42,131 nt of DNA from IMG/VR virus record IMGVR_UViG_3300002064_000001, positions 1 to 42,131 of that record. One strand, 5' to 3'. The notes beneath the pieces are model-generated. The model was not told the origin of the DNA and did not search any database. It saw only the letters and a list, made by a program, of their open reading frames with translations. The position numbers were made by a program, and so were the translations under genes. Below, in pieces: positions 4,360 through 31,609 of the stretch. This DNA comes from a virus. How positions within the stretch are numbered: the first letter of the stretch is position 1; each line of letters begins with the position of its first letter.

Positions 4360-4368
4360 ATTGTAACA
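4360..4368 (-). promoter_or_regulatory. Extended -10-like TGtTACAAT, 9 nt upstream of the endolysin ATG
   Basis: Minus strand ATGTTACAAT-aataatgtt-ATG. Confidence 0.35.
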
Positions 4369-4375
4369 TAAAACA

Positions 4376-4822
4376 CTAGCTTTTACTAGTGTCTCCTCGT
4401 TCTAAGAACGACATAAGAAGTGATTTGAATTTGTTTAATATTAGGTTCACAGCATCAATCTCCTTAATAGGTTCTCCTGTTTTAATAGTAGAGATATTAC
4501 CAATGATAGATAGTGCTTCTGATACAATCAGCATATTGATTGCCCATATTGCAAACATAGATAAGTCTAATCCAATACCTTTACCTGTCCATACAACAAC
4601 AAGCGGTACAAGTAGTACAAGGAATTTAAACAGTATTCCAAAAGATAAGGTACGTGATGTTAACTTTCTCCATCCCCCCACACGAACTGTAGCAATAAGA
4701 CCAGTGATTACATCAACAACTAAGAATGCACTTAGTATAGCAATAGATGTTTGGTCAAGCCCAGCTAGCAAGAACGGAATAAATCCAATCATTAAGTTTT
4801 TAAATCCGGCAGTTAAGTTCAT
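4376..4822 (-). CDS. Holin (phage_holin_4_1 / TcdE-like family)
   Basis: 148 aa with multiple TM helices. LVVDVITGLIATVRVGGWRKLTSRTLSFGILFK resembles the holin family 4 signature. It lies immediately upstream of the endolysin. Confidence 0.7.
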   Translation of the reverse strand: MNLTAGFKNLMIGFIPFLLAGLDQTSIAILSAFLVVDVITGLIATVRVGGWRKLTSRTLSFGILFKFLVLLVPLVVVWTGKGIGLDLSMFAIWAINMLIVSEALSIIGNISTIKTGEPIKEIDAVNLILNKFKSLLMSFLERGDTSKS

Positions 4823-4824
4823 AA

Positions 4825-5223
4825 TTAATTTGATTTGGTGGCATTCACAACATGACTTCCTTTCTCTCCGAAGATTGAAAATACTTTATCAAGTCGCTTT
4901 CTGAATGTTTTACCTCTGGTTGATAAGTTTGATTTAAGAGCATTATGCCCTGTAATTGCTGAGATTGTTTCGTTCCAATTTCCATATGGATGTCGCCCTT
5001 TACGGTTAAGATAAATATCATTATATCTTTCACCTGAACATGCATTGTCTATTCCGTCAAACGCTAATGCGATACTCCTGAATATAGGGGCAAGTTGTTT
5101 GTTTATGTTGTAGTCACCCTTAAGTGCATGCTTGAAGAATGTATAAAGAATACCAAAGATGGCATCTAGTGTAAACACAGTAATTCCCACAAGCATTATA
5201 ATGAATTGTTTTAATGCTTCCAT
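4825..5223 (-). CDS. Membrane-anchored hypothetical protein
   Basis: 132 aa with an N-terminal TM helix. It has its own TGgTATAAT promoter. Confidence 0.5.
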   Translation of the reverse strand: MEALKQFIIMLVGITVFTLDAIFGILYTFFKHALKGDYNINKQLAPIFRSIALAFDGIDNACSGERYNDIYLNRKGRHPYGNWNETISAITGHNALKSNLSTRGKTFRKRLDKVFSIFGEKGSHVVNATKSN

Positions 5224-5232
5224 AATGGATAC

Positions 5233-5241
5233 ATTATACCA
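5233..5241 (-). promoter_or_regulatory. Extended -10 promoter TGgTATAAT, 9 nt upstream of ATG 5223
   Basis: Minus strand cataTGGTATAAT-gtatccatt-ATG. Confidence 0.55.
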
Positions 5242-5258
5242 TATGCAATAAAAAAAGA

Positions 5259-5849
5259 CTAGCTTATTTCAAATAAGATAATCTCTTTTACAAGTAGGTT
5301 ACGTGTGCCATCTGGGTGTAGTATAGTGGTCTCTGCGTTAATATAAGGATTAAGTTCTCCATCATATGAAGCTAATCCATTAAAGAAATCTGCATCACCA
5401 TTCTTTTCGAATGACTCAATCTCCTTAGAGAAGTGGTCGAACACAATCTTAATAACAGGCTCAAGTGTTGTCCCTCTTGCTTTAGAACGTAGATAATCCA
5501 TTGTTCTAATTCTGTCATTACGCTTCTTTGTTTCAATCTTCTGAGGGTTCATCTTTTTAAACTTACGTTTATGAATACCCCATTCACCATCATGTTTATA
5601 CCAATAGAAGTCAATCCAGACACCATCAGCTACGTAGTCAAATTCACGTCTTACAGCAACCTTACCATCATAGTGGTGTTCGTGGTACTCTTTGACTCCA
5701 CCTCTACCGTAGTAAGGCTCCTGGTCATCAAGAGAGAGTAATGTAAAGTCAAAGGTAGGAATGTGAACAGGGCTGTCCATGTTCTCTAACTCTGGATATA
5801 TAACTAACTCTTGGTTTGATTCAGTTTTATTTATTGTAATATCATTCAT
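5259..5849 (-). CDS. Hypothetical protein downstream of the collagen-like fibre (possible fibre accessory/assembly protein)
   Basis: 196-aa ORF, 4 nt after the fibre gene. No motif recognised. Confidence 0.4.
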   Translation of the reverse strand: MNDITINKTESNQELVIYPELENMDSPVHIPTFDFTLLSLDDQEPYYGRGGVKEYHEHHYDGKVAVRREFDYVADGVWIDFYWYKHDGEWGIHKRKFKKMNPQKIETKKRNDRIRTMDYLRSKARGTTLEPVIKIVFDHFSKEIESFEKNGDADFFNGLASYDGELNPYINAETTILHPDGTRNLLVKEIILFEIS

Positions 5850-5853
5850 AATT

Positions 5854-7377
5854 TTATTCTACTTCCCAAGTATAGGTTGTTGTTAAGTATCGTGTACCTG
5901 TGTTTGTTCCTACTGGTTTAATGTAAATAGAAAGATAAGAATCTTCAGGTACTTCTACATCCATTGTAAATGTTCTACGTCGTCTATCTACCATGTTACC
6001 ACCTAGTGCAACAGGTGAATCAGCCACAAAGAACTCTCTAAATAAATCAACAACAGTATCTTCTGCGTCACTATCCATACCTGTTTCCCATCGTGAGATA
6101 GGATTTGGATGCCTTAGTAATCCGTAAATTTCAAAGTCTGTAATCTGAGTGTTGTTTGCTCTACATACAAAGTGTAATTTTTTAACACGTCTACCTTTAG
6201 GAATAAGAAGTCCCATGTGTTCCCATTCAATAACAGGGTCTACAGCAGTAGTACCTGACTCATTAAATTGGTAATAACCTGGTCCATAGTTATCATCTGA
6301 ATCAGTAACCCAACGCTTATCAGAGTATAAGTAGAAACGTCCTGAGTTAGTAATAAGACTTGTTGTTACGCCACCATCATTACCAGCAGGTCCTTGCTCA
6401 CCTTGTTGTCCAGGTAATCCTGCTGACCCAGGTTCTCCTTGAGGTCCTTGAATACCTTGTAGCCCATCAGCACCGGCAGGTCCAGGTAAACCATCAGCTC
6501 CATCAGCTCCAGGTAAACCTTGAGCACCATCATTACCAGCAGGTCCCTGCTCTCCTTGAATACCCTGTTCTCCTTGAATACCCTGTTCTCCTTGAATCCC
6601 CTGTGCACCATCTTGCCCATCATTACCAGCAGGTCCTTGTATTCCCTGAATACCTTGGTCTCCAGTATCCCCCTTATCTCCCTTAGGTCCTGTTTCTCCT
6701 TGAATACCTTGTGCACCATCTGCTCCGTCTGCTCCGTCTTGTCCGTCATTACCAGGAATACCTTGTGGTCCTGTTTCTCCTTGAATACCTTGTGCACCAT
6801 CTGCTCCGTCTGTACCAGCATCTCCTTGAGGTCCTTGTTCACCTTGAATACCTTGAGGTCCTTGGTCTCCAGTATCACCTTTAGGTCCAGGTACGGTAGA
6901 ATCAGCTCCTGGTAAACCTTGTGGTCCAGTGTCTCCAGTATCTCCCTTAGGTCCAGCAGGTCCAGGTACAGTAGAGTCTGCTCCTGGTAAACCTTGATTA
7001 CCTTGGTTTCCTTGTGGTCCTGTTGCTCCTTGAATACCTTGCTCTCCTTGTAATCCAGTATCACCAGGTAAACCTTGTGGTCCTATTGGTCCAGCAGGTC
7101 CCTGAATACCTTGGTCTCCAGTATCACCTTTGTCACCTTTTAGTCCTGTAGGTCCTTGTGGTCCAGCAGGTCCCATTGGTCCAACTCCTCCTGAGCCTTC
7201 ACCATTATTGTTAATAGTTACAGTACCTCCACCTCCTGTTTTTTGCTCATCTTTTAGTTCAATTATCTCCCCTTTAATAACCTCAACATCTCTACTTAAG
7301 CCCTCAACTTTAGTAGCCATACGTTTGTTGTTATTGTTTAGCATTACGCTATTTCTGATTTGTTTCGCATTCTTCAT
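5854..7377 (-). CDS. Collagen-like (Gly-X-Y) tail fibre protein with globular C-terminal domain
   Basis: About 270 residues of uninterrupted G-X-Y triplets, apart from two GADSTVPGP breaks, then a non-repetitive C-terminus. The start is moved to the second ATG (MKNAKQ) because the -10 hexamer overlaps the first ATG. Confidence 0.8.
6373..7188 (-). repeat. Collagen triplet-repeat coding region with internal DNA tandem repeats
   Basis: The 18-bp unit ctccttgaataccctgtt is repeated three times around 6550-6600. Longer ~45-bp duplicated segments lie around 6688-6815. Confidence 0.7.
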
Positions 7378-7384
7378 ATAGAAC

Positions 7385-7393
7385 ATTATAACA
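7385..7393 (-). promoter_or_regulatory. Extended -10 promoter TGtTATAAT, 7 nt upstream of ATG 7377
   Basis: Minus strand tatgTGTTATAAT-gttctat-ATG. Confidence 0.55.
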
Positions 7394-7404
7394 CATATAG
7401 GGCA

Positions 7405-7427
7405 ATAAAAAAAGCCTACTTGAGACT
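7405..7427 (-). terminator. Putative terminator overlapping the stop codon of the 1263-aa gene
   Basis: Minus RNA AGUCU-CAAGU-AGGCU (5 bp) followed by U7. Confidence 0.4.
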
Positions 7428-10400
7428 TCTTTCATAGCTTTTAACAGCCTTATCTAGTAGTTTAGGGTCTGCTTTCTTTAGTGATTCTTTATCTGAATCA
7501 TCTCCTGAACCAGACATAACCTTCTCAACAATAAGTTTAAGACGACTAGTTTCTCTGGTTTCAAATTCTTTAACATAGCTTTCAATTTCATCTGGTGTAG
7601 ATTCTTTAAGGAAACGTTTAGCTTCATCAGTACCTCTACCTTTTAAGATTGCATCAATATGTCTTGAGCCTTGTGACTCACCTTGATTTTCAAAATCATT
7701 AACTAAATCTTTAATACCTTTCTCACCAAGTTCCTTCATACGTTCCTTGTAAACATCTTTCATCCCATCAGGTACCTGACCTGTCATAATGTTTTGAACC
7801 ATATTGATATCGTCTTGGTCTCTGGTCTTAGTAGATTCAACTCTGTTTGCATCACGTAAATCTTCACGTTCTTTTTCCTGCAAATATTTATTATGAATAT
7901 CTTCATTTCTAAATTGTGGTCTACCAGGATTAAGTAGTTCATTAACTCCTTCTAATGCAGTCTTGTTTTCCTTACCATAGAACAGAGGAACACCGTCACG
8001 GTCTGTCTTCTGTGTTAGGTTTTTAGATAAACCAGGAATATCTTTCTGTAAATATTCAAGTGCTTCCATAAAAGTCTGAGGAGTAATCTTCTTTTCATTG
8101 TCAACAAATGCTCTGTTTATTGCACCCATTGCAGAAGAGTATGGGATAAACTGTCTTGCTGTTTGAGCCATTTGAGTAGCAGGGTTTTTATCACCACGAA
8201 TAACAGCAGGTAAGTCTAGGGCTGAACCCATAAACTTTTGGTCTAACGATTTAGTTAGCTCACCTCCCTGAAGAGTAAGGATAACACCAATGAATTCCAT
8301 TGCTGTATTAACTAACTCTTTATCTTTAATGTCAAACTTACCGTCTTCAACAGCCTTAGCAATATTAGCACCGAAGAAGATAGGACCAGATGATGGACCA
8401 AGTGCTTCAAGTTGATGCCAGTTTTCTCCTATCTGTACTGACTCATATGCATTACCTTCATTGTCAGCATACTTAGTTGACGTAGCGTTCTTGTTTCCAC
8501 GGTCTAGTTTAAACTTCTCTTTATTGTGTGAGTATAATTGGAAACCTGCATAAGTAAGACCTGCTCCAAATACTTGGTCAGCCATAACTCCGGCTACATC
8601 TTTTGAACCTAATGCTTCCAACATACCAACACCAGGAATTCTACGTAGGTGTTTTGTTGATAGACGAGCAATAGTGTTAACAAACGGTACCATCCATTTA
8701 ACAGGATGGATATCAAGTTTGTTTTTAGTTCCCTTAAGGATAACATCGTTCATGCTTTTATCAAGAACCTTAACACCATCAGCTAAACTTGAAGTCAAGT
8801 GTGATAGCATTCCGTAAGATTTAGTGTTCTTTTGCATTCTGAAGATAGCATCTTGTGCGGTCTCATCAGCAATCTTACGAGCTTTGTTTAGTTGAGTGGT
8901 GGTAAGTCTACCTGCATTAGCGAACTCTTTACGTTTTAGAACCTTAGCAAGTTCACCTTCGAATACAGCAGTATACATTACAGCATCACCAGCTTCTAAT
9001 GCACGTAGTGGAATACGGAAATCCTTAGCAATATCTCTTCCTCCAACTTTCCATTCAGCAGGAAGTCTATCAATATCAGTATGTTTTAGTTCATCAACCT
9101 CATTGAATACATTAATAGCTTTCTTAATTGACTTATTAAATGTATCAGGTTTAAATAATGACTTGTAGTATGTACCAATCTCACCAACCTCACGACCTGT
9201 TCTCATTGATTTAGGTAATACTAATTCAATGAATGAAGCAATCTCTTCAACAACAGGACGAGCTACAGTGTTCTCCACCGTGTTTGACATCATGTTAATT
9301 GCGTGGGTTGCAGTGTTAGATAACATGTTAGAGTAACGATACATTTCTAATAATGAACCCCAGTTAGTTGGAGAGTTCTTTGCAAAGATGTCTTCAATAT
9401 CTTTAACATCTAATTCAGATAGTGCCTTACCTTTTTCATCAGCACCTTTCTTAAACATAGATACAATATCTTCTGTTGATTTACCTTGAGTCTTAAGTGA
9501 CTTAACAGCTTGACCTAATCTATCTTGAGCCTTAGTTGTTTTAACCTTAGCTTTAACTTCACCTACAACATTCAATACCTTACCGGCAATGTTCTTGTGT
9601 TCAGTAGCTGTAACAATACCGTTAATAGCTTCATCGAAGTTATCTTCAGCAATACCTTTAGCTACTCTGTTTTGAGCATTAGCAAGACCTTCAGTGAATT
9701 GTTTTGCAAAGTCATCAAGTACACTCTTATCAAGAGTTCTTAAGTTATCCACAAGTCCTTGGTCAATCTTCTTGTAGTAATTAAGAAGGTCAACCATTCC
9801 ACCCTTAGTATCAGTAATCAATGGTGTAACTTCATCAACTAAATCAAGAGCCTTAAGTCTCTGCGATAAAGGTAAATCATCATAAGCACCTTGGTTAAAT
9901 ATCTTCTTAAGTTCTTTTGCTTTAGCACTAGCTTCTTCAGGTAGGTCAACCTTTTTAATTTCATCAATTAAACCACGTAATTCTTTTTCTGCAACATCAG
10001 CTTCAGCTAACACTTCTCCAACTTCATCAAGCTTACTTGATTGGAAACCAATAGCTTCAAGTTCATCAGCAGTGTTAACAAGATTATCTAATGACTTACC
10101 AGTTGTTGCTGGTACATCAACCACGTTATCAACATCATCAAGAACCTTTCGAACTTGTTCTGTTGTAACTTTTTCAATATTAGTTTCAATCTTCTTACCA
10201 TTCTTAAAGAAGTTAACTGTTGATTCTCCTGCATCTTCAAGTTCAATCATCTTCATTAGTGGAACTGAACCACTTTCTTTTGCTTTGAATAAATCATTAG
10301 CAAACCTTAGCATATCATCATCACTACCTTTAGCTAATCCCTTAAGTACAAGAAGGACCTCATCTACATTCTTAGCATTCTTGACAGCAGTCTTCAATGC

Positions 10401-11207
10401 ATTCTTTCCACCAGAAGAACCAGGAATAACATCAATAGCAGAACCAATGAAACCAAGAGCTGGAATCATTTTTGAATCAGGTTTAATATCTAATCCTGGA
10501 ATGATATTAACAAGCTCAGCCCATTCTTCACCAACAGTATTAAGGTTAACATCATCTTGCTCATCAGTTAAACCAAAGAAAGTTTTAAAGTTATCCCCAG
10601 CACGTGGGTTAGTTTCTTCTAGGAACTGAACTGAGTTCTTCATCCATGAGTTTGTATCATCTTCAACTTGAAAACCAAAACCTGTTTTATCATTAACATA
10701 GTTCATTGCTTGCCCTGTTTTACCAGACAAGAAGTTTGTTAATGCTACCCCACTTCTAAATACAGGGGCGAGTAACATATCATATACTCCACCAGCAGTT
10801 CTTTCTTCAACTGATTTTAATCCCTTACCAAACAATGACATGTCTGATTTGTCAAAGACTCCTTCTTCAAATAGTTTCTCTTCACCCTCTTTCCTTTCTT
10901 TTTCCTTAGCTCTATGCTCTCCAATCTTACCTATGTTAAGTAAACTAAACCTACCCTCATCAGCTTCCTTTTGTTGGTAGTTATCAAACCAGTCGAACAA
11001 TGAATTACTTGATTCAGTAAAGTCTCTTTGGTCTTGTTTATATAATGCGTTGTCTACACGAGGTGTGTATTCTGTAGAAGGTTCTTCATTTTCTACAATA
11101 TCTTTTGAATAATTAAATGCTTCTTGAAGATTATCTGTTGTATCACTAACAGCGTCTTTAACAACATCAAAACCTTCACTTATATTTTTTCTAAACTTAT
11201 TAAACAT
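7416..11207 (-). CDS. Large internal virion / DNA-ejection (core) protein, gp16-like by size and position
   Basis: 1263 aa. It lies between an internal-protein-like gene and the fibre gene in a T7-like order. The start is moved to MFNKFRKN because the longer GTG-started extension contains the promoter. Confidence 0.4.
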
Positions 11208-11214
11208 ATAAGGT

Positions 11215-11223
11215 ATTATACCA
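11215..11223 (-). promoter_or_regulatory. Extended -10 promoter TGgTATAAT, 7 nt upstream of ATG 11207
   Basis: Minus strand attaTGGTATAAT-accttat-ATG. Confidence 0.6.
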
Positions 11224-11231
11224 TAATACCA

Positions 11232-11254
11232 AAGAAAAAACACCCTTATGGTGT
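11232..11254 (-). terminator. Rho-independent terminator directly upstream of promoter 11215
   Basis: Minus RNA ACACC-AUAAG-GGUGU followed by UUUUUCUUU. Confidence 0.5.
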
Positions 11255-11255
11255 T

Positions 11256-12239
11256 TTAACTATTAAGAAATGCAGTCAGTGCTTGGGCAGTTGAGCTACC
11301 TGAATTACTTGAGCTAGATGCTCTAGGTGCATACTTACCAGCAAGCTTGTTGCTTTCTTGTTCCCGGAGGAAGTCTCGATATGAACCACGGTATCCTTGA
11401 GAGATAGCTAGGTTGTAATCGTTTTCTACTGAACCACGAGATTGGTTTTGAATAGTAGCTTGAAGCTTTTGATAGTCAAGAAGATTCTTTTGAATATTCT
11501 GAGTAACATCCTCACGCTGTCTATCTTGTTCTTGCAACAAGCCATACTTTTCAGCAACAGCTCGTAGACGTTCTTCCTTGATAGACTCTTCTAATTCAAC
11601 AATACCTTTCTGTGTTTCCAAGTCAATCTCATTGATTTGGTCAACACCATATTGCATAGCATTAATCATTGCGTCATCTGCAATCTCTTGTGCATAACGA
11701 GAACGACCAGAACGTAGTTCATTTTGTAATGTACCACCTTCATAGTTATCATTAACTCGTGATTGTCTAAGCTCTAGGTTACGCCCAGTTGCTCTAAGGT
11801 TTTCAAGATTCTTCTTTTCAGTTGATGAGTATTTAAACTTACCAGCTTGAATCTGTTGAACCTCACGAAGATATCGTTCCATTGGTGATGGTCCATCATC
11901 TTCATCATCGTCATCATCTCGTCTTTTCTTTTTAGTTTCAAGTTGATTGATATTAGCAAGAGGGTCGAAAGAGTTTGACTTAGAAGAAGACTGTCTTTGT
12001 TTGTAGGCATTCAAATCAGACACAGCATTGTTATAACCAGTACGTGCCTTCTTAGAAGTGTACGTAGGTTTAGCTGGTTGAAGTGGTCCTTGCCACTCAC
12101 CTGAAGTAGCCTTTGGTTTAGATTTTGATTTTTTAAATCTATTATATAAATCATAAGCTCCACCAGCAACCATACCGGCAGGTCCGAGTGCTGTACCTAT
12201 AAGCTTACCTTTATTGTTTTTGAAAAAGTTATTGAACAT
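11256..12239 (-). CDS. Internal virion protein candidate (Gly-rich hydrophobic N-terminus, poly-Asp/Glu tract, coiled coil)
   Basis: 327 aa with RRDDDDDEDDG. The call rests on position between the fibre and the large core protein. Confidence 0.3.
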   Translation of the reverse strand: MFNNFFKNNKGKLIGTALGPAGMVAGGAYDLYNRFKKSKSKPKATSGEWQGPLQPAKPTYTSKKARTGYNNAVSDLNAYKQRQSSSKSNSFDPLANINQLETKKKRRDDDDDEDDGPSPMERYLREVQQIQAGKFKYSSTEKKNLENLRATGRNLELRQSRVNDNYEGGTLQNELRSGRSRYAQEIADDAMINAMQYGVDQINEIDLETQKGIVELEESIKEERLRAVAEKYGLLQEQDRQREDVTQNIQKNLLDYQKLQATIQNQSRGSVENDYNLAISQGYRGSYRDFLREQESNKLAGKYAPRASSSSNSGSSTAQALTAFLNS

Positions 12240-12247
12240 AATACTGT

Positions 12248-14959: not shown

Positions 14960-14966
14960 ATGTTGT

Positions 14967-14975
14967 ATTATACCA
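14967..14975 (-). promoter_or_regulatory. Extended -10 promoter TGgTATAAT, 7 nt upstream of ATG 14959
   Basis: Minus strand gataTGGTATAAT-acaacat-ATG. Confidence 0.6.
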
Positions 14976-17103: not shown

Positions 17104-17104
17104 A

Positions 17105-18244
17105 TTATAATCTTGGTTTACGTTTCTTGTAATAATTAGTTGTAGGTCTCTTAGCTGAAGAAGGCATGTCTTGAACGTAGTTCATTTTTTCCTTTTCATA
17201 TTTACCTTTCCAGTAATAAGATTCAGAAGCTCCTGGTTTATAACCATAGTCATGTACTTGCTGAGAAGCTAGTTCACATAATTTATATAGTAGTAAATCA
17301 TATCCTTCTTGAATAACAAGTGCATTATCATCTGAACTAATACGTGGAGACAGAACACCTTCTTCACTAATGAATAAGTATTTAGAATAGTATTCAATCT
17401 CTGATTGGTCTTGAATGTTTGATGTAATAGCATCAACCTTCCACCCAGTAAGTGCTAACCCTGATACATCCCCAAAACTAGATTCAATAAAATTAATATT
17501 AGTTGGGTCAGGTATACCTGTGTTAACAGCATCACGCCAGTCTAGTTTAACTAAGTTCCATCCATCAACAAAACCTGTACCGTATACAGTACGTGTTGTT
17601 GTAATTTCAAAACAGTTAAGTGCATCAGTACCAGCTTTAATTTTAAACTGAGCTAGGTTTCCTTTTGGTGGAATCTTAATAAACATATAGAATGATGATT
17701 CATTCATGTGCCCAATAAGGTTTAAGCTTAATCCATTAGCTGTAATACTAAATGGTCCAGGTGCTACTTGACGGAAAGATACAGAGCCTGTTCCTTGGAT
17801 GTAGTCATAAGGGTCTCGTTTAATATCATCAATGTTTGAACCTGTCAAATCAGCAGAAGAATCAAAGTCAATAAGTTGTAGTCCTTCCGGTACCTCAACC
17901 CCTTCTACTTCCATTGCTTTAAACCCATTGATATATTTAATATCAATGTTTTCTTCTTGGTTGTTTTTAGTATTACTTAATACAAGTTTAAAGTCATCTT
18001 GTCCAGCAATATTAATTCTAACAAACTTCTTCTTGTTCATATCACTTGGTAGTGCAAGCAATGGGTCATCAAGATAAACAAAAGGTAGTTCTGACTTCCT
18101 TCGTGTTTCTTCTAGGTCCAGGTCTTTTACAACCTCACGCCCTGCATTTTCAATTAATCCATTCGGATTAAAAAGCTTATCAAGGTTTGTTCCGTGAAGT
18201 TTTCCTGCTAGGTCATTTTTTAAATCTGATACTCTATAATTCAT
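17105..18244 (-). CDS. Tail tubular protein A / adaptor-like protein (by position)
   Basis: 379 aa from MNYRVSDLK. The track's longer ORF starts at TTG and contains the promoter. Confidence 0.35.
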   Translation of the reverse strand: MNYRVSDLKNDLAGKLHGTNLDKLFNPNGLIENAGREVVKDLDLEETRRKSELPFVYLDDPLLALPSDMNKKKFVRINIAGQDDFKLVLSNTKNNQEENIDIKYINGFKAMEVEGVEVPEGLQLIDFDSSADLTGSNIDDIKRDPYDYIQGTGSVSFRQVAPGPFSITANGLSLNLIGHMNESSFYMFIKIPPKGNLAQFKIKAGTDALNCFEITTTRTVYGTGFVDGWNLVKLDWRDAVNTGIPDPTNINFIESSFGDVSGLALTGWKVDAITSNIQDQSEIEYYSKYLFISEEGVLSPRISSDDNALVIQEGYDLLLYKLCELASQQVHDYGYKPGASESYYWKGKYEKEKMNYVQDMPSSAKRPTTNYYKKRKPRL

Positions 18245-18251
18245 ATAAACC

Positions 18252-18260
18252 ATTATACCA
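18252..18260 (-). promoter_or_regulatory. Extended -10 promoter TGgTATAAT, 7 nt upstream of ATG 18244
   Basis: Minus strand gataTGGTATAAT-ggtttat-ATG. TTGTCT lies 17 nt upstream as a possible -35. Confidence 0.6.
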
Positions 18261-18282
18261 TATCTACCTAATTTAGACAAAG

Positions 18283-18301
18283 AAAAAACACCACATAGGT
18301 G
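18283..18301 (-). terminator. Weak terminator after the capsid gene
   Basis: Minus RNA CACC-UAUGU-GGUG (4 bp only) followed by U6. Confidence 0.3.
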
Positions 18302-18317
18302 ATGTTTCTTCGGTAGG

Positions 18318-19301
18318 TTAAGCCCCTACTGAACCAGTAACTCCAATGAAGTCAACAGCTTCTTGACCATCTCGGAAAGATGCTAGGTATTTTGAAGTAC
18401 CATTGTCAGAATATTGTTTGTCTCGGAAGTTAGTTTCAAGTGCTTTACGAGTATAAGACATAACTCGGTGTTCGTCTCCTAATAGGAAGAACGCAGTATC
18501 TGAACCAGCAGTAAGTGTTCCAAATACAGGGTCTACTGTAGAAGTAATTTGTGCTCCCATGTAACGTGATGTTGCAAGTGAGATGTCATACTTGTTTGAG
18601 TAGTAGTTAATGTCGTTGTCGTTTGAACCTGTAACTTTATCAGTATCAAGTAATACGCAAGCTTCTTTGTGAAGTGCAGTTGGAACCAATAGGCTTGATG
18701 CAACTTGTCCTTCATCAATAGTACCATCGTGTAATACTTGTGAGTAAAGTTTTGTGAATAGGTCATCCACTCCAGCTTCTCCAAATGCAGTTGTAGATTT
18801 GTTGTCAACTACATCTCCGTTAAGAGTTTCGTTAGTATCGTCTACAAGATATTTAGGAGTACCTACTGTTGACAAGATAGTCTCAGTAGATGCGAAAGCT
18901 CCACGGTAAAGGTCGAATCGAATTCGGTTTTTAGTCTGCATAGCTTTTCGTCCAAGGTCAGCAACGTGTCGTTTTACAACTCCCCACATGTCATCATCTT
19001 CAAGTTCTTCTGTAATTTTTACAGAGTTAGTGAACTTAGAGAATCCAACTGGTCGTTTTGGTCCTTGTTCGAAATTACTTTCAGCGTAATCTCCTTCTTC
19101 CGCAGTTCCTACGAATTCCCCAATTCCTTGGTAAATAGTTGAAACAGTTTCAGCTCGGTTGTTAATAGATTCTTGGTTGAAGATTCGTGTGTCAGAATGG
19201 TCAACGTGTCCTGAGATTTTTTTCTTGTTGTAAGAATCCCAGAAGATTTTGTCTAACCCAGTTTTTACAACATCAGGGTTAAGTGCTCGGTCGTTAGTCA
19301 T
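18318..19301 (-). CDS. Major capsid protein
   Basis: 327 aa, directly after the scaffold-like gene and preceded by a long structured leader. The call rests on position and size. Confidence 0.65.
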   Translation of the reverse strand: MTNDRALNPDVVKTGLDKIFWDSYNKKKISGHVDHSDTRIFNQESINNRAETVSTIYQGIGEFVGTAEEGDYAESNFEQGPKRPVGFSKFTNSVKITEELEDDDMWGVVKRHVADLGRKAMQTKNRIRFDLYRGAFASTETILSTVGTPKYLVDDTNETLNGDVVDNKSTTAFGEAGVDDLFTKLYSQVLHDGTIDEGQVASSLLVPTALHKEACVLLDTDKVTGSNDNDINYYSNKYDISLATSRYMGAQITSTVDPVFGTLTAGSDTAFFLLGDEHRVMSYTRKALETNFRDKQYSDNGTSKYLASFRDGQEAVDFIGVTGSVGA

Positions 19302-19376
19302 AGTAATTTTTATAAATTAATAAGTAAATAAAGAATCAATATAACTTAACGTATAGGTTTAATGTCTATAAATCTA

Positions 19377-19997
19377 TTACTCGCTTGGGTTAATAGTAGA
19401 CTCATCCACACCAATAGCTTCAAGGAATTTCTTGTCAGCTTGTGATAATGGAATGTTTGCACCTTCAGTTGGAGCAGTACCTGGTAGGTCTACTCCTTTA
19501 GCTTTAGTATTCAAGGTACGTTTAAGTTCTTTGTTAACTACAGCAGTCTTCTCTGCTTGTGCAAGTGTAAGAGCAACTGATAAATCTGCTTCAGGATTTC
19601 CTGTAGGCTTAACGATATTATCTAAGTAGTATTCTACTTTAGCTCGTACATTGTCGTCTTCTACTAATTGAGGTAATGATTCACGGAACTTAGTAGCTTC
19701 CTTTTCAGCAAGTTTCTTTTCCATGTATGCATCAAGTTCTTCCGGTGATAATCCAGCAGACGGAGTTTCCTCTGTCTTAGGAGTTTCTTCTTTCGGAACT
19801 TCTTTTTTAGCAAGTCGTTCTTGGTTAAGTTTATATTGAGCTTGAGCTAATTCTTTTTCTTTAGCTTCAAGTTGTGCTTTGTAAAAAGCGGTTGATTCTT
19901 CAGGGGGTGTAGTTCCCGCATCAGGATTCGAATCAGGTGTAGTCGGTGCCCCGGCTACTTCCTCTACTGTTGGTTTAGTATTATCTACATCAGACAT
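19377..19997 (-). CDS. Scaffolding protein
   Basis: 206 aa, Ala/Glu/Lys-rich with a coiled-coil character (AQLEAKEKELAQAQYKLNQERLAKKE). It lies between the portal and capsid genes. Confidence 0.6.
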   Translation of the reverse strand: MSDVDNTKPTVEEVAGAPTTPDSNPDAGTTPPEESTAFYKAQLEAKEKELAQAQYKLNQERLAKKEVPKEETPKTEETPSAGLSPEELDAYMEKKLAEKEATKFRESLPQLVEDDNVRAKVEYYLDNIVKPTGNPEADLSVALTLAQAEKTAVVNKELKRTLNTKAKGVDLPGTAPTEGANIPLSQADKKFLEAIGVDESTINPSE

Positions 19998-20202
19998 ATT
20001 GTTTAATCTTTCTTACCGTGAAAGTTACGGGGTCTTATCTTTATTCGAACCCTGATTGCAAAATCAGTGTCAGGTCAAAGTTACCTATAATTTATAATCA
20101 TAGTCACGAATGTAACTAGTAGTAGGGACAAGAGAGAAACCACAGCAAAAATCTTTCTCACCCCCACAACTAGTCACACTAGTGACTGGTTAATATGTGT
20201 TT

Positions 20203-20211
20203 ATTATACCA
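20203..20211 (-). promoter_or_regulatory. Extended -10 promoter TGgTATAAT driving a ~200-nt leader before the scaffold gene
   Basis: Minus strand aatgTGGTATAAT-aaacaca.... No ATG follows at the usual distance. Confidence 0.5.
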
Positions 20212-20213
20212 CA

Positions 20214-20537
20214 TTAATTGTCTTTATGCATACTTGACAACACATTTAATTTGTTGTTTATCAAGTTTACACTATACAATAAAGCCTTCCCAAACTCACT
20301 CTCTTCTTTATAATAAATCTTTTCGTGAGCTAGGTGACTTAGTTCATTCAACATAAGAGAGACAACATGGTCTTTCTTTTTAGCATCGTAAGCTTGACGA
20401 GCTACGGTCATTACTTGACGTTGGTCTAGTTGTTTACCATTAATAAATAGTTTACCTCTATGTGATACCAAGAAATCCGTTGATACATTTGCATTGAATA
20501 GGTGCTTTAAACACCAGTTTTTGATTCGCTGTTTCAT
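20214..20537 (-). CDS. Hypothetical protein (107 aa) between portal and scaffold
   Basis: ATG-started ORF. TAGTATAAT lies 6 nt upstream (20544-20549). Confidence 0.5.
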   Translation of the reverse strand: MKQRIKNWCLKHLFNANVSTDFLVSHRGKLFINGKQLDQRQVMTVARQAYDAKKKDHVVSLMLNELSHLAHEKIYYKEESEFGKALLYSVNLINNKLNVLSSMHKDN

Positions 20538-20555
20538 AGTAGTATTATACTATTA

Positions 20556-22448
20556 TTACTCAGTATCTGCAAGTAAATTCTTTAGACTACCAGTACCTGT
20601 TATTTGTTGAGGTAGATTACCATTAACCGGTTGGTCAACTTCAGGTTGTTGTAGTCCATCATCTTTACGCATGAATCGTTCTTCATCTCCTGGCATATAT
20701 GGAGTTAATAGGAATTCCTTAGTAACTTCATTCTGGTCAAGAGTTGGGTTATTAATAGCCCGGTCGTATGCTTCAAGTTTAAGTGCTCGTTCCATACGTT
20801 TGTTAGGTTTAGTTAATTCTTCTTCTGAAATAAATACAGAGAACTTTTGTTTTCTAAACAGAACAGGGTCAACAAGTTTAATAGATACATCATTATCAAC
20901 ACCTTCTTCTTCAAAGAGTCGCATTGAAATTTCATCTTCGTCAACCATTTCTTCACCAAAGAATTCATCAGTGAATCGTACTTGATTCATATCTGAAGGT
21001 CCTTCTCCTTGAAGATTACCATTAGCTAGAAGTGATTTATATTTAAGCTTCTGTCCTCCTGACAATAACTCAGTAACTTCTGGCATAGTTAGATATTGTA
21101 GAATATCTCCTTGCATTAGTTTTCCTAATTGCTTTACAAGACTTGATAACTGTCGTCCAAATAATCCTAATGAACGTAGTGAGTTTTCTTCTAGCCCTGC
21201 GAACTCTACTGCTGTCATTTCTTTTGAATCAGCAATACCTGCTGAACGTCCTGACTGAGTAGACTCTGACATTGATTGTTCAATGTTTTGTGTAAGTCGT
21301 AGACCTGCTCCAATGTCTGAGTTACCTGATAGAACTTCTACCTTACCTTCTTCTCCGGCATGAGTAACTTGACCTGGAATCATAACAGGTGCATCAAATC
21401 TAGTTTCACCGTATGAAATCATAGGTGGAATAAGTGCAATAGCTCCTGCATCGAAAATCATATTATACAATGAATCAATAAGGTTCTGGTCTGGTGCAAT
21501 CTTATTTACAGCAGACTTACCTACAAACATTGCTTGAATTTCTTCGAACACTAATGAAGCAAAAGGATATAGTCCATCTTCACGTGTCATAGGTTCATCA
21601 TGAGCAGTCATAAGGATACCATTAATAAGAACAACTTCTTCACAAGCAAGACGGTCGAAGTATGTCATAACCATTACTTCATCATCTTTCAAGTGCTTAG
21701 TATCTTCTTCATAGAATGAAGATTCGTTTGAATCCCACTTAACAATAGTACCAGCAGTAATATATCCAAAGTTCTTATTCAAACCGTAACGTTGTTTAGC
21801 TTGACCATAAGATGTAACCTTTCGTTTAATAAGCCAAGGTTGTAGTTGAATATTCTTTTGATTAATATCAGCAAACAAGATGTCTTGAATCTTTAGAGAG
21901 TTATAAAGAATACCTGTCATTAATTCATCAATGACTTGTTCTTTTTCAATCTCTCCCATTTCATTACGCCATCGTTTTGTTCTAAACGTTTCGTAGTATC
22001 CTGTTTCAATATATGCAATAGGGTCAGTAAGTGCGTTGATAACTGTACGTGCATAATCCATTTCGTAAGATGAGTGTTCAATAACCCATCGTGAAATTAA
22101 CCGCATCACTTCAGCAGTATCTCTGTCCTGCATGTCTTGGTCATTCTGTGCCCGGAACGAAGGATAGATAATCATTGAAATCATTTTGTTTGCAATCATC
22201 ATAATCTTGTTACGAGTAACAGGACGAACGGTATCTGCCATCCAATCAAAGTCTGGGTCAGATGCTCGTGGTGGCATGTATGTGTTAAAAGCTTTTTGAT
22301 TACGTTCAGCTTCTTCTAAAATAGAACGTTCATCATAAGCTCTTATTGGAGTATTCAATGTTCGTACTCCTTTATTGTATTTAACAAGAATATCAGAAAC
22401 TTTCATTTCCTCATCCTTTGTATATTTAATGTCAAGCTTTTTTTTCAT
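20556..22448 (-). CDS. Portal (head-tail connector) protein
   Basis: 630 aa, downstream of the large terminase and upstream of scaffold/capsid. The start is moved to MKKKLDIKY because the -10 hexamer overlaps the first ATG. Confidence 0.7.
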   Translation of the reverse strand: MKKKLDIKYTKDEEMKVSDILVKYNKGVRTLNTPIRAYDERSILEEAERNQKAFNTYMPPRASDPDFDWMADTVRPVTRNKIMMIANKMISMIIYPSFRAQNDQDMQDRDTAEVMRLISRWVIEHSSYEMDYARTVINALTDPIAYIETGYYETFRTKRWRNEMGEIEKEQVIDELMTGILYNSLKIQDILFADINQKNIQLQPWLIKRKVTSYGQAKQRYGLNKNFGYITAGTIVKWDSNESSFYEEDTKHLKDDEVMVMTYFDRLACEEVVLINGILMTAHDEPMTREDGLYPFASLVFEEIQAMFVGKSAVNKIAPDQNLIDSLYNMIFDAGAIALIPPMISYGETRFDAPVMIPGQVTHAGEEGKVEVLSGNSDIGAGLRLTQNIEQSMSESTQSGRSAGIADSKEMTAVEFAGLEENSLRSLGLFGRQLSSLVKQLGKLMQGDILQYLTMPEVTELLSGGQKLKYKSLLANGNLQGEGPSDMNQVRFTDEFFGEEMVDEDEISMRLFEEEGVDNDVSIKLVDPVLFRKQKFSVFISEEELTKPNKRMERALKLEAYDRAINNPTLDQNEVTKEFLLTPYMPGDEERFMRKDDGLQQPEVDQPVNGNLPQQITGTGSLKNLLADTE

Positions 22449-22455
22449 ATGACTC

Positions 22456-22464
22456 ATTATACCA
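22456..22464 (-). promoter_or_regulatory. Extended -10 promoter TGgTATAAT, 7 nt upstream of ATG 22448
   Basis: Minus strand aataTGGTATAAT-gagtcat-ATG. Confidence 0.6.
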
Positions 22465-22484
22465 TATTGTTAATATATGGACAA

Positions 22485-22859
22485 CTACTTTTTCTTTTTC
22501 TTATATAGTTTTTTGAAAGCAAAATATTGCTCCACTAGATAACCTAGTAAATAAGCTGAGGGTTCATCACCATCAGGGTCAGTAGTGTGACCGATATGAT
22601 TCATAATAAATTGAACAGCATGTAGCATTTCGTGAGCAACAGTCCCTGGGTCATCAACATTAAACCTAACAAGTATTTGTCTTGACTCCTCCATATGGTT
22701 CTCTGCCCTACCATCAGCACACTTATCCCAACCATGCTTATCCTCAAGCTCCTTGTTCATCTTTGGTGTAAAACACTGTATTCTACAATAGTACATAGGT
22801 ACATCAATAGTAAAGGATTCTGCATTAACTAATTTTTCTTTCTTTGCGTATAGTTTCAT
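22485..22859 (-). CDS. Minimal zincin-like metallopeptidase (HExxH)
   Basis: 124 aa with AHEMLHAVQFIMNHIGH (HExxH plus downstream His residues) and a Lys-rich tail. Confidence 0.45.
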   Translation of the reverse strand: MKLYAKKEKLVNAESFTIDVPMYYCRIQCFTPKMNKELEDKHGWDKCADGRAENHMEESRQILVRFNVDDPGTVAHEMLHAVQFIMNHIGHTTDPDGDEPSAYLLGYLVEQYFAFKKLYKKKKK

Positions 22860-22860
22860 A

Positions 22861-24381
22861 TTATCTTCGTTTTAAATAAGACCTAACCTTTTGACGAACA
22901 CGTTGAGATGTTCTATTTGTTTCAGTCTTCTTAAGTGCGTCTAAACAGAATGACATACAGTCTGCACGGTCATCCCTTTTCCCTCTAGGGAATTGTAATA
23001 ATTCTAATTCGTAAGATGTATCTTGTGCTCCCTTACGGTGATATATTACACCACGTTGATAGAGTCCTAACAACCCTACACCAATACGTTCTTTCTTGTT
23101 ACCACGTTTGGTTTCATAAACCTTAAAGTGTACACCTCGTTTTGATTGCTCTTCTTCAAGAAGAAACGCTAATGATTTCTGGAATGCAATCTGCTCCATT
23201 GTTACACGTGAACCATATTCTTCATAATGTTTAAAGATAAGGTCAACTGTTTCTCGTGGAGTAAAGTGTCCTGCGTCTTCTCTGATTCTATAGATGTTAT
23301 AGTCATCACGTTCCTTTGCAATAGTAAGTACGACAGTGTTATCAGCATCATCATCTTGTGAGATAGCCGGGTCAATAAGAGTATAGTAATCAAGCTTCTT
23401 TGCTTTAAACTCTTCTGAGTTAGGGTCAAAGTATTTAAAGTTATCTTCCTTAAAGACTTGTAGTTCAGATAGAATAGGGTCCTGTTGGTATTGTGAAGCC
23501 CAAGCATATAGTGACTTAGCCTTAATAACCTCTAATGCTTTTAAGTCGAACACCTCTTTCCATAGTGGCTCACCTGCCTTACGAAATAGTTTCCCATCAT
23601 AGTATTGGTCTTCAGTAGCAATGGCTTCGAAATTAATCACTTCCCATTTCTCGAATTCACCATCTGGGTTTTCAAGTTCTTGTTTGGCTTGTTCTTCTAA
23701 TAGTCTACCTACTGGGTCATCTTCATGCCAGCGTTGCATAATAACAATCTTTACCTTTCCATATTGTATTGTCTCCTTTGTTTCTGGGTCCTTAGCTTTA
23801 TATGGTTGAGAACGAGAACCAAGTGTATCTCGAAAATATACCCAAGCCTTATCACGTGATGTCTTTGATTCTGCATCTGCACGTGACTTAATCATATCGT
23901 CAGCAATAGTAATGTTGGCACCATACCCTGTAACGTTACCTCCCACACCTACACCTAAGAAGATAGAACCATTATCAAGCTTCATACTTGATTTACTCTT
24001 TTCATCTTTTCTTAATGTAGCATCAGGGAATATTGCTTTGTATTGTTTGGAATTTAATATGTCACGGATATTCGAACCTGTCTTCTCTGCAAACTTACCG
24101 GTATGTGTGGCAAAGATTAATTCTAGTCCAGGTAATAGTCCCATAAGAAATGTACCCATCAGTTCAGCGAATGTATGAGTTTTACCATGACGAGGAGGAA
24201 CAGCAACGATAAGATATAGTTCTGCTCCTGGTGTAGTTAATGCTGTATAGATTCTGTCTACCATGTCAGCGAAGATACGGTGAATAGTAGATACTTCATA
24301 TTTAGGATTAACTAATTGTGCGTATGCTCGAAAGGATTGCCTTCCTAGTTTTGCAAGTAATGTATTTATTGAATGTTTCAT
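22861..24381 (-). CDS. terL: Terminase large subunit
   Basis: Walker A-like VAVPPRHGKT, Walker B-like ITIADD, and acidic C-terminal nuclease-type motifs. It lies directly upstream of the portal region. ATG 24381 is preferred over the TTG at 24405. Confidence 0.85.
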   Translation of the reverse strand: MKHSINTLLAKLGRQSFRAYAQLVNPKYEVSTIHRIFADMVDRIYTALTTPGAELYLIVAVPPRHGKTHTFAELMGTFLMGLLPGLELIFATHTGKFAEKTGSNIRDILNSKQYKAIFPDATLRKDEKSKSSMKLDNGSIFLGVGVGGNVTGYGANITIADDMIKSRADAESKTSRDKAWVYFRDTLGSRSQPYKAKDPETKETIQYGKVKIVIMQRWHEDDPVGRLLEEQAKQELENPDGEFEKWEVINFEAIATEDQYYDGKLFRKAGEPLWKEVFDLKALEVIKAKSLYAWASQYQQDPILSELQVFKEDNFKYFDPNSEEFKAKKLDYYTLIDPAISQDDDADNTVVLTIAKERDDYNIYRIREDAGHFTPRETVDLIFKHYEEYGSRVTMEQIAFQKSLAFLLEEEQSKRGVHFKVYETKRGNKKERIGVGLLGLYQRGVIYHRKGAQDTSYELELLQFPRGKRDDRADCMSFCLDALKKTETNRTSQRVRQKVRSYLKRR

Positions 24382-24391
24382 AATGTGTGGT

Positions 24392-24811
24392 TTAATCGTT
24401 AACAATATCTTTAAGAGTATCTATAAGGTCACGTGCTTGTGAATTAGATAGTTGAGACTTAAAGTCGAATTCACTAATCCCGGCAGTAGATGAGCCATGG
24501 TCTTTAATAATCTTAATAAGAGTTTGTAGCTCAGATGATTTAGGATTAGTACGTAGTGTCTGCATTAATCCTTGTACCATTTGTGGTAACATCTCTCCGG
24601 CTATTTGAATTGTTACTCCTGATAAATCTGAGATGAAGTTAGGTCTTGTTTGAAATTCAAGTATCTCTTCTTTAGTTACGTTATACATATCTCCGAATTC
24701 CATAAGTGTTGTTGGTCTACGGTCTTGCTTTGGAGTTGCTTCCCATCTAAGGTAGCGTTTGTATACTTGTTCCATTGGAACCCTTTCTTTCTTTAAGCTT
24801 GGTTTTTTCAT
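24392..24811 (-). CDS. Terminase small subunit candidate
   Basis: 139 aa, the first gene of the late arm, immediately upstream of terL. The start is taken at the second ATG, 8 nt after the -10 hexamer. Confidence 0.4.
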   Translation of the reverse strand: MKKPSLKKERVPMEQVYKRYLRWEATPKQDRRPTTLMEFGDMYNVTKEEILEFQTRPNFISDLSGVTIQIAGEMLPQMVQGLMQTLRTNPKSSELQTLIKIIKDHGSSTAGISEFDFKSQLSNSQARDLIDTLKDIVND

Positions 24812-24819
24812 ATACATAT

Positions 24820-24828
24820 ATTATAGCA
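24820..24828 (-). promoter_or_regulatory. Extended -10 promoter TGcTATAAT at the head of the late arm
   Basis: Minus strand catgTGCTATAAT-atatgtat-ATG. Confidence 0.55.
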
Positions 24829-31608: not shown

Positions 31609-31609
31609 T

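Follow-up and report, generated by a model that had tools for sequence, protein, structure and literature searches.

Extended −10 promoter-like boxes abutting late-gene start codons point to near-leaderless messages in a phage genome

In the window, i.e. the whole 42,131-nt stretch of viral DNA that was analysed, strong promoters of the sigma-70 type likely yield leaderless or near-leaderless mRNAs of the first genes of the late units. The box defining these predicted promoters comprises a TTG at −35, a 17-bp spacer and T-A-T-G-G-TATAAT-A, a TRTGn extended −10 form, and would be read by the host RNA polymerase. With the hexamer ending 6–9 nt before the ATG, the 5′ end would coincide with the A of that ATG or lie 1–3 nt upstream, leaving a leader of 0–3 nt, and each late unit would have its first gene translated from an mRNA with no leader or almost none. 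Downstream genes of a unit would initiate without a Shine–Dalgarno (SD) sequence on an A/T-rich context, like the rest of the genome. Terminators lying 3–21 nt upstream of five or six boxes would insulate the units for tail and lysis genes, the late arm, 23 kb in length, would be expressed as about ten short units of one to three genes, and two boxes (20203 and 25320) would drive non-coding RNAs. We infer from the sequence that the boxes act as promoters, where exactly their transcripts begin, that translation takes the leaderless pathway and that these genes are expressed late; the label ‘late’ reflects gene content only. The core of what an earlier note on this DNA had proposed, namely promoters abutting ATGs and near-leaderless mRNAs, is supported at the sequence level by strand, placement, conservation and start codons.

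The motif TGnTATAAT (TGNTATAAT) occurs in nine exact copies in the window, exclusively on the minus strand. All nine fall in the non-coding part of the late arm and are oriented with its coding strand (non-coding share of the arm, 5.4%; chance of nine out of nine boxes falling there, ~4e-12). The mean minus-strand count in 1000 dinucleotide shuffles was 1.94, and nine was never reached; the arrangement TGNTATAAT-N5-9-ATG was seen seven times against 0.21 expected, a count matched in 0 of 1000 shuffles. An eighth ATG-adjoining box, TGTTACAAT at 4360, carries one mismatch and stands 9 nt from its ATG, and the two parts of an extended −10 promoter, TGn and a TATAAT-like hexamer, are present in the nine exact TGNTATAAT copies and the one TGTTACAAT. 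When a 12-nt matrix trained on relatives only was scanned over the window, module sites (a box with its ATG) took ranks 1–7, and 10 of the 12 top matches were intergenic and on the minus strand, coding matches appearing only at lower scores. Comparison with shuffled sequence, which had been suggested as a check, bears out the enrichment, with exact boxes exclusively outside coding regions. The coordinates and spacings originally reported all hold: 24820 (8 nt), 22456, 18252, 14967, 11215 and 7385 (7 nt each), 5233 (9 nt) and 4360 (9 nt). Two more exact boxes, at 20203 and 25320, had been overlooked; no ATG follows either.

All eight modules, and the hairpins associated with them, lie on the minus strand. 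Module 1 (24809–24828; TGCTATAAT, 8 nt, ATG 24811) precedes a small-terminase-like gene of 139 aa, followed in its unit by terL (start 24381) and a 124-aa gene; in its orthologues in the relatives L001, L002 and L057, the start is the box-proximal ATG at a spacing of 6–8 nt. Module 2 (22446–22464; TGGTATAAT, 7 nt, ATG 22448) precedes the portal gene, of 630 and not 633 aa, and is kept there in L001, L002, L057, L060, L064 and L065, with portal identity down to 26%. After the capsid gene, a 13-bp hairpin with a T-tract resembling an intrinsic terminator (18282–18311; dG −13.7) comes ahead of module 3 (18242–18260; TGGTATAAT, 7 nt, ATG 18244), which heads a 379-aa gene and then a 701-aa gene. 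Module 4 (14957–14975; TGGTATAAT, 7 nt, ATG 14959) leads a gene of 903 aa with a beta-propeller and CBM5/12, followed by a 327-aa gene. Another terminator-like hairpin with a T-tract (11233–11261) ends 9 nt ahead of the box of module 5 (11205–11223; TGGTATAAT, 7 nt, ATG 11207), the start of a 1263-aa gene whose orthologue in L057 shows the same succession of hairpin, T-tract and TGATATAAT-N7-ATG.

Upstream of module 6 (7375–7393; TGTTATAAT, 7 nt, ATG 7377), which precedes a gene for a 507-aa collagen-repeat protein and then a 196-aa gene, there is a weak, A/U-rich hairpin (7405–7435) in which the T-tract itself forms the 3′ arm and which stricter scans missed. Terminator-like hairpins with T-tracts also precede module 7 (hairpin 5253–5287; module 5221–5241, TGGTATAAT, 9 nt, ATG 5223), with its 132-aa and 148-aa genes, and module 8 (4348–4368; TGTTACAAT, 9 nt, ATG 4350), with a Peptidase_M15 endolysin gene of 369 aa and a 101-aa gene, where the 9-bp hairpin (4372–4393) ends 3 nt ahead of the box. 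The last unit (2859–2909, minus strand) is leadered: a hairpin with a T-tract at 2909–2885 is followed by GATATAAT (−10 at 2864–2859), about 26 nt upstream of the ATG at 2832. A hairpin and T-tract are therefore located upstream of the boxes at 18252, 11215, 5233, 4360 and 2859, with the weak one at 7385, and none was found upstream of 24820, 22456, 20203 and 14967. Among the terminators that had been placed directly before modules, those in the 11232–11254 and 18283–18301 regions are confirmed, while at 7405–7427 there is only the weak hairpin. The idea of a late arm cut into terminator–promoter units stands, in that about ten predicted units of one to three genes are supported, five or six of them starting right after a terminator-like hairpin.

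On comparative grounds, the ATG 6–9 nt past the box is the true start. The longest open reading frames of four genes begin upstream of or inside the box, at an ATG within TATAATG for the portal gene, TTG 18280 for the 379-aa gene, GTG 11243 for the 1263-aa gene and ATG 7386 for the collagen-repeat gene. These starts should move downstream, as the earlier note had argued, because the module ATG is precisely where orthologous proteins begin; in-frame stops between box and ATG in relatives agree with this. Orthologues of the module 3 gene share the opening M(N/I/K)YR(V/I)S(D/N)LKNDLAG, which begins at that module's ATG; in the L001 counterpart a stop codon separates the box from the ATG.

L001, L002 and L057 (portal identity 72–81%), as well as L060, L064 and L065 (26–37%), carry modules at the corresponding genes, while the flanks diverge. 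In a logo of 30 sites from the family, information is near zero from −30 to −18 and high from −17 to −6, with the consensus T-17 A-16 T-15 G-14 G-13 TATAAT A-6; G at −14 is invariant and G at −13 reaches 70%, in a genome whose start regions are depleted in G (8%). The −35 region shows T-35 at 80% and G-33 at 60%, a partial TTG with a 17-bp spacer. The boxes are hence promoter-like in being strand-specific, intergenic, near-consensus, provided with a TTG at −35 and conserved amid diverging flanks. Spacing between TATAAT and ATG, described earlier as a rigid N7, is looser than that: it is 7–9 nt in the window, exactly 7 at five of the eight modules, and 6–10 nt across the family with a mode of 7 (6 nt at 5 sites, 7 at 16, 8 at 4, 9 at 3 and 10 at 1). 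At 7 nt, the canonical +1 would be the T before the ATG, and the conserved Y-A-T fits a start at A(−2), with a 2-nt leader, equally well as one at the A of the ATG; purines following pyrimidines are present at both positions. Relatives also carry the same box 25–60 nt from an ATG, and in a GC-rich relative TTGACA-17-TGTTATAAT is followed by a leader of 43 nt. The same box and grammar are found in unrelated metagenomic phages, which have no flanking homology in common, and therefore probably reflect the host.

Start contexts differ between module genes and the others. SD sites were found at 1 of 43 genes, their absence being a genome-wide trait rather than one specific to modules, and non-module genes display an SD-less, A/T-rich start context in which −3 is A and −1 is T. 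A at −3 is present in 28 of 35 other genes and in one of eight module genes (p = 0.0007), which fits upstream bases lying outside the mRNA. Like genes of the leaderless type, module genes have no upstream signal for ribosome binding, and their start context differs from that of other genes. The first 40 nt past module ATGs are nearly unstructured (−1.5 vs −4.4 kcal/mol, p = 1e-8).

The two exact boxes without an ATG are also on the minus strand. The TGTTATAAT box at 25320–25328, at the top of the late arm, is conserved in L002 together with its flanks (GTATTTTGTTATAATATAAGG), and probably drives a short non-coding RNA or a leader running into a T9 tract. The TGGTATAAT box at 20203–20211, upstream of a scaffold-like gene, keeps its position in L001, L002, L057 and L064 and is the predicted promoter of a structured RNA or long leader before that gene. 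Between it and the scaffold-like ATG at 19997 lies a conserved, structured RNA of ~205 nt (19998–20202, minus strand) with 46 pairs, 24 of them showing compensatory changes (RNAalifold, 4 relatives); no Rfam family matched it.

One alternative, rather unlikely, is that the promoters are real but most protein comes from read-through transcripts, with module ATGs used as internal SD-less starts and the leaderless route a minor one. Four of the ten boxes have no upstream terminator, one hairpin is weak, and internal genes all initiate without SD, so module ATGs would need no 5′ end; yet the A at −3 of internal genes is missing from module genes, strong terminators stand directly upstream of five boxes, and the 6–9 nt spacing is kept in distant relatives, which read-through usage does not require. 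A chance word has a practically negligible probability: the genome is 36% GC with AT-rich intergenic DNA, but shuffles and conservation refute chance, placement and strand contradict it, and control phages of comparable GC (Flavobacteriia, cyanobacterial and SAR11) contain no modules.

The motif could also act in translation, as an A/U-rich initiation element (a non-SD ribosome-binding or S1 site) ~7 nt upstream of genes on one long late mRNA, and a host that uses no SD, together with the non-SD A-rich motifs reported ~9 nt from starts in such genomes, would suit this. We consider it highly improbable, as no more than about half of the late genes carry the motif, always past larger gaps and often past terminators, the invariant G-14 and frequent G-13 go against the G depletion of start regions, and a TTG 17 bp upstream is meaningless for translation; the copies without an ATG at two conserved sites, like those 25–60 nt from an ATG in relatives, argue for transcription. 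Also highly improbable is a phage-regulator binding site, or a junction for recombinational module exchange, in place of an RNA polymerase site. A near-identical 12-mer at module boundaries and in unrelated phages might suggest it; against it, the 12-mer agrees at every base with the extended −10 consensus of sigma-70, its orientation and distance to start codons are fixed, and unrelated phages share only the box, without the flanking homology that recombination leaves.

Near-leaderless late transcription from host-type promoters, as proposed here, adds a clear-cut new case to a known expression mode and involves no new mechanism, and the earlier description of the arrangement as unusual for a phage was overstated, given Thermus phages with dense late promoters and mostly leaderless transcripts and Flavobacteriia phages with promoters in the structural module. 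Thermus phages phiYS40 and Lalka27a have many late-gene promoters, consisting mainly of a −10 element and used by the host RNA polymerase, and their transcripts are mostly leaderless, with the start codon's A or G as the 5′ end; sixteen late promoters are predicted in Lalka27a, and the middle and late mRNAs of phiYS40 have no leaders. The present phage resembles both in its many predicted late promoters and leaderless messages, although no protein or DNA similarity to either was found. It differs from Lalka27a in its box (TRTGnTATAAT instead of TAGGGT with a conserved C at −25) and in its five or six terminator-bounded units, Lalka27a having no obvious terminators between collinear genes, and from both in having essentially no gene with an SD site. 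In Thermus phage P23-45, promoters of the late class belong, like the boxes here, to the extended −10 type and are used by the host RNA polymerase, gp39 displacing sigma region 4 and favouring such promoters; the boxes here retain a partial −35 TTG, and a search of every ORF against gp39, AsiA, sigma and anti-sigma families (Pfam, PHROG) gave no match, such small proteins often being undetectable by sequence.

In the GeneMarkS-2 ‘group C’ of Deinococcota and Actinobacteria with leaderless genes, a Pribnow box lies 6–8 nt from the first-gene start, close to the spacing here, and annotated starts need correction. Internal genes of group C use SD, whereas those of this phage have an SD-less, A-rich context like ‘group B’, and in no GeneMarkS-2 group do leaderless first genes occur together with internal starts of the non-SD kind. 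In its translation signals, the phage is similar to Bacteroidota phages: SD-like sites amount to ~4–5% and A at −3 to 56–66% in Flavobacteriia phages 11b and phi10:1, compared with 2% (curated starts) or 4% (the crude ORF measure used for controls) and 67% in the window. As the primary sigma factor of Bacteroidota hosts reads TAnnTTTG and not TATAAT, what reads the boxes depends on the host. Phages 11b, phi10:1 and elemoF likewise have several structural-module promoters, some right after terminators, and in each, one promoter lies 4–5 nt from an ATG (21116, 40973 and 19082, respectively); leaderless spacing is the exception there and the rule here. These phages use the −7 element of Bacteroidota, TAnnTTTG, as their box; it is plainly visible upstream of genes in all three controls, while the window has TATAAT throughout and no TAnnTTTG boxes positioned ahead of genes. 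Bacteroidota-type promoters were rejected for the window, where most TAnnTTTG copies are intragenic and no copy is accompanied by TTTG at the distance expected of a −33 element.

The cI mRNA of lambda, transcribed from PRM, is the classic leaderless phage mRNA, a single gene compared with a whole arm here. In T4, late genes are preceded by dozens of late promoters that consist of a −10 element only (TATAAATA); these need gp55/gp33, and their mRNAs are leadered and contain SD. T4-type promoters (TATAAATA, gp55, no TGn) were rejected, the boxes here being TGnTATAAT and only the TATAAA before the capsid gene resembling them. This TATAAA-N7 before 19301 and the TAGTATAAT-N6 before 20537, which had been described as degenerate modules, are present as described, but neither is conserved in relatives. 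The capsid gene does have a conserved −10-like box 30–38 nt upstream, followed by a leader made up purely of A and T.

The window covers an entire phage genome that closes into a circle and has 36% GC; its first 49 nt are identical to its last 49 nt, leaving 42,082 bp of unique sequence. Running down the minus strand from ~25.3 to 2.4 kb, the late arm encodes a small-terminase-like protein, TerL, the portal, the capsid, a collagen-repeat protein, a Peptidase_M15 endolysin and several large virion proteins. The early arm, on the plus strand, encodes a helicase, a primase, PNKP, a dNMP kinase, a nuclease and a Cpn60-like protein. No isolate phage resembling this genome was found: a nucleotide search of 50,697 phage records returned no match, and in tblastn searches the portal and a 435-aa protein had none and the capsid a single weak one. 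Its relatives are metagenomic contigs only, and the terminase relatives present in genomes share only 26–28% identity and come from unrelated GC-rich MAGs. Matches to the tail proteins suggest an aquatic setting and nothing more specific.

Eight late genes are preceded by an extended −10 box of the TGnTATAAT type, followed 7–9 nt downstream by the ATG. For these boxes, at 24820, 22456, 18252, 14967, 11215, 7385, 5233 and 4360, every coordinate and spacing reported in the earlier note is correct. The sequence TGNTATAAT occurs nine times in the window, each time on the minus strand, where 1000 shuffles give a mean of 1.94 and never nine copies, and the composite TGNTATAAT-N5-9-ATG is observed seven times where 0.21 would be expected, a count that none of 1000 shuffles reached. 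All nine boxes fall within the non-coding 5.4% of the late arm, with a chance probability of ~4e-12. Under a 12-nt matrix trained on relatives only, the module sites of the window take ranks 1–7 and coding-region matches score lower; equal frequency of the motif inside coding regions, which the earlier note had named as a test of its own reading, is thus not what was found. Four control phages with a GC content close to that of the window (Flavobacterium 11b, Cellulophaga phi10:1, Prochlorococcus P-SSP7 and Pelagibacter HTVC010P) contain no module.

The modules precede the same genes (small terminase, portal, 379-aa, 903-aa and 1263-aa) in L001, L002 and L057, metagenomic relatives with 72–81% portal identity to the window, and in the distant relatives L060, L064 and L065 (26–37% identity) a module stands before the portal gene despite diverged surrounding DNA. 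A logo of 30 sites has an information content of about zero from −30 to −18 and a high one from −17 to −6 (T-A-T-G-G-TATAAT-A), with T at −35 in 80% of sites, G at −33 in 60% and a 17-bp spacer. Across the family, the distance from TATAAT to ATG is 7 nt at 16 sites, 6 at five, 8 at four, 9 at three and 10 at one. The portal gene of the GC-rich relative L059 (61% GC) is preceded by a textbook TTGACA-17-TGTTATAAT promoter with a 43-nt leader.

If the hexamer occupies −12 to −7, +1 would fall on the A of the ATG when the spacer is 6 nt long, and on the T before it when the spacer is 7 nt. The polymerase of E. coli favours as start site a purine after a pyrimidine, 7–8 nt past the hexamer, and the common ...Y-A-T-ATG context has suitable purines in position 8, the A of the ATG, and in position 6, A(−2), so that leaders of 0–3 nt are predicted. 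The boxes are probably functional promoters yielding such leaders; the observation made in the earlier note is confirmed, and its interpretation is supported in silico, subject to corrections.

Ortholog proteins align from the module ATG onward (for example MNYRVSDLKNDLAG, MIYRISNLKNDLAG, MKYRVSDLKNDLAG and MYRVSDLKNDLAG), the in-frame sequence upstream of these ATGs is unconserved, and several relatives have a stop between box and ATG. The true starts are therefore placed at 24811, 22448, 18244, 14959, 11207, 7377, 5223 and 4350, in agreement with the earlier proposal that in four cases the longest-ORF start should move; terL starts at 24381. The public call of the portal gene begins within the promoter (633 aa, should be 630), and that of the small terminase lies 12 codons too late (127 aa, should be 139). 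In leaderless genomes that lack SD sites, no signal marks a start better than the promoter box, so the same gene-calling error will recur across this phage family.

Shine–Dalgarno (SD) sites are absent genome-wide, GGAG, GAGG or AGGA being found at −20 to −4 in 1 of 43 genes, and upstream of the starts G accounts for 8% of positions −15 to −1, with A at −3 in 67% and T at −1 in 84%. This general lack, missing from the earlier list of features, means that the modules are not special in that respect and that SD absence at a module is not diagnostic by itself. What is diagnostic of module genes is the missing A at −3, a base present in 28 of 35 non-module genes and in one of eight module genes (Fisher p = 0.0007), a difference that would follow if the mRNA did not include the bases before the module ATGs. 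The first 40 nt after these ATGs are almost unstructured (−1.5 kcal/mol, compared with −4.4 in coding windows inside genes; p = 1e-8); low structure near starts being general, this weak folding is consistent with leaderless reading but not specific to it. The SD-less pattern extends to relatives with GC contents from 35% to 61%, and the stop codons of the window are TAA (36), TAG (7) and TGA (1).

The boxes at 18252, 11215, 5233 and 4360, and a leadered TATAAT at 2859, each have a hairpin with a T-tract 3–21 nt upstream. The terminators claimed earlier directly before boxes thus hold at 18252 and 11215, whereas the hairpin before 7385 is weak; hairpins with T-tracts were looked for before 24820, 22456, 20203 and 14967, and none was found there. 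The coupling of terminator and box recurs in relatives, for instance before the 378-aa and 1243-aa genes of L057. Together, boxes and hairpins split the late arm into ~10 units of 1–3 genes each, of which the tail and lysis half is, as predicted from these elements, the better insulated. Two degenerate modules had also been proposed and are rejected as not conserved: TAGTATAAT-N6 before 20537 is missing from L001 and L002, and TATAAA-N7 before the capsid gene is not conserved among relatives. In all relatives, the capsid gene has a −10-like box (gcgTATAAT, TATAGT or TATAAC) 30–38 nt upstream, then an A/T-only leader that may serve as an unstructured enhancer for the most abundant protein. With this upstream region (19302–19376, minus strand, with counterparts in L001, L002 and L057), the capsid gene is the exception to the leaderless rule.

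Two exact boxes, at 20203 and 25320, have no ATG after them. The box at 20203, a late-type promoter, is predicted to drive a conserved non-coding RNA of ~205 nt (19998–20202, minus strand) located between it and a scaffold-like gene, with counterparts in L001 (6802–7009), L002 (12869–13070) and L057 (4835–5049). This RNA contains a 27-bp helix, compensatory changes in 24 of 46 predicted pairs and an invariant 3′ hairpin CCGTAACTTTCACGG; it matches no Rfam family, and may act either as a structured 5′ UTR or as an independent phage sRNA. The other box, at 25320, is kept in L002 and, with a short T9-terminated stretch downstream, may give an RNA of ~75 nt ending at the T9 run.

The two arms use distinct promoter classes, the minus-strand class being inferred to be late from gene content only. 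No TGn box was found on the plus strand of the window, where promoters form a different conserved unit (...GTATACATATAATC...) located 11–14 nt from the ATG, from which A-rich early leaders of ~5–8 nt are predicted. An early promoter unit, TTTTGTTTTATAATTATGTATATAATCATTTTAGAATTGTATACATATAATC, is repeated on the plus strand at 25690–25731, 26161–26228 and 26790–26831, and has −10 boxes in tandem as well as a GTATAC palindrome. This unit, also kept in L001 (minus strand, 950–1700), may include an operator. Between the arms, a divergent control region of 900 nt (24829–25731) holds blocks almost identical to those of L002, including long A/T runs, an inverted repeat AACGTCG-N19-CGACGTT and CCCT repeats, as well as CGTTTGACCCCTCCAAAAAATTTTTCAAAATT directly upstream of the terS promoter; these blocks are candidate origin, packaging or regulator sites. 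Four early-arm gaps of 250–400 nt on the plus strand (31338–31609, 33949–34300, 34526–34919 and 38128–38375) contain no convincing ORF or Pfam match. The Cpn60/GroEL-like protein is encoded at 40229–41719 (plus strand) and in the family members L065 (4779–6476) and L066 (5036–6745); only the N-terminal part of the window protein matches the Pfam model, and in the host search its matches are generic.

In Deinococcota and Actinobacteria, ORF-adjacent −10 boxes are a well-documented source of leaderless mRNAs, and middle and late transcripts of Thermus phages are mostly leaderless. [quoted passage not shown] Within the structural module of each Flavobacteriia control phage lie several promoters, of which one is 4–5 nt from an ATG: a TAnnTTTG box at 21116 in Flavobacterium phage 11b, where it comes after a terminator, at 40973 in Cellulophaga phage phi10:1 and at 19082 in Flavobacterium phage elemoF, which implies that occasional leaderless genes may occur in Bacteroidota phages too. 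Given these precedents, the mechanism is already known; what is new is the near-exclusive, highly regular use of ORF-adjacent boxes in a new phage family, and also its combination with terminators directly upstream of the boxes and a genome without SD sites. The ~40 bp units of terminator, strong promoter and leaderless ATG are compact expression parts, and the family offers a natural setting in which leaderless translation can be tested where initiation does not depend on SD sites.

A scan of the whole collection for TATGGTATAAT-N7-ATG became useful after modules were re-counted per locus. Among the matches listed, most are single chance matches, and at least five low-GC, SD-poor contigs (L100, L104, L117, L102 and L097) carry 3–5 modules of the form TGnTATAAT-N6-8-ATG on one strand. 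Their proteins, which include Terminase_3 and Mtd_N, PASTA and fn3 tail proteins, differ from those of the window, the only similarity being one early gene in L097 (56% identity), so that the grammar most likely mirrors the expression signals of a shared host group. L100 and L104 also contain a TGTTATAAT box followed by a ~60 nt hairpin with T-tract and then the next box, an arrangement resembling a gene for a small RNA.

In its SD depletion and its A at −3 the window resembles Flavobacteriia phages, which have 4–5% SD-like sites, and about 90% of non-SD genomes belong to the FCB group; SD-like sites reach 25% in Prochlorococcus, 36% in SAR11 and 53% in Pseudanabaena phages, unlike the window, which argues against hosts of these types. 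A classical Flavobacteriia host is argued against in turn by promoters, since the Bacteroidota TAnnTTTG box is present in all three Flavobacteriia phages and is not used by the window. Bacteroidota-like translation signals set against non-Bacteroidota promoters are the most interesting tension in these data, for which a pair of explanations is offered with little confidence. The grammar may be the expression code of an uncharacterised host lineage in which translation is fully SD-independent as in Bacteroidota, promoters are canonical sigma-70 extended −10 elements and leaderless first cistrons are routine; several phages without a common origin would have converged on this grammar. Or the host may belong to the Bacteroidota, with an unrecognised phage factor directing its RNA polymerase to E. 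coli-like promoters not normally used by the host sigma; no phage sigma or anti-sigma factor was found among the ORFs of the window, nor a DxDGD-type polymerase motif in the large virion proteins. Unrelated phages share the absence of SD together with canonical TATAAT promoters, a combination that could serve as a fingerprint for identifying the host clade.

An 800-nt non-coding stretch on the minus strand (1052–1856) contains a tRNA-Leu(UAA) at 1359–1443. The adjacent tRNA-like segment at 1273–1352, a truncated match to a tmRNA model, lacks confirmation by ARAGORN and is rejected as a second tRNA. At 1459–1656 lies a weak manA-RNA-like match (20 bits, below threshold). An extended −10-like box, GTGGTATACT, at 1676–1665 on the minus strand could drive all RNA elements of this stretch.
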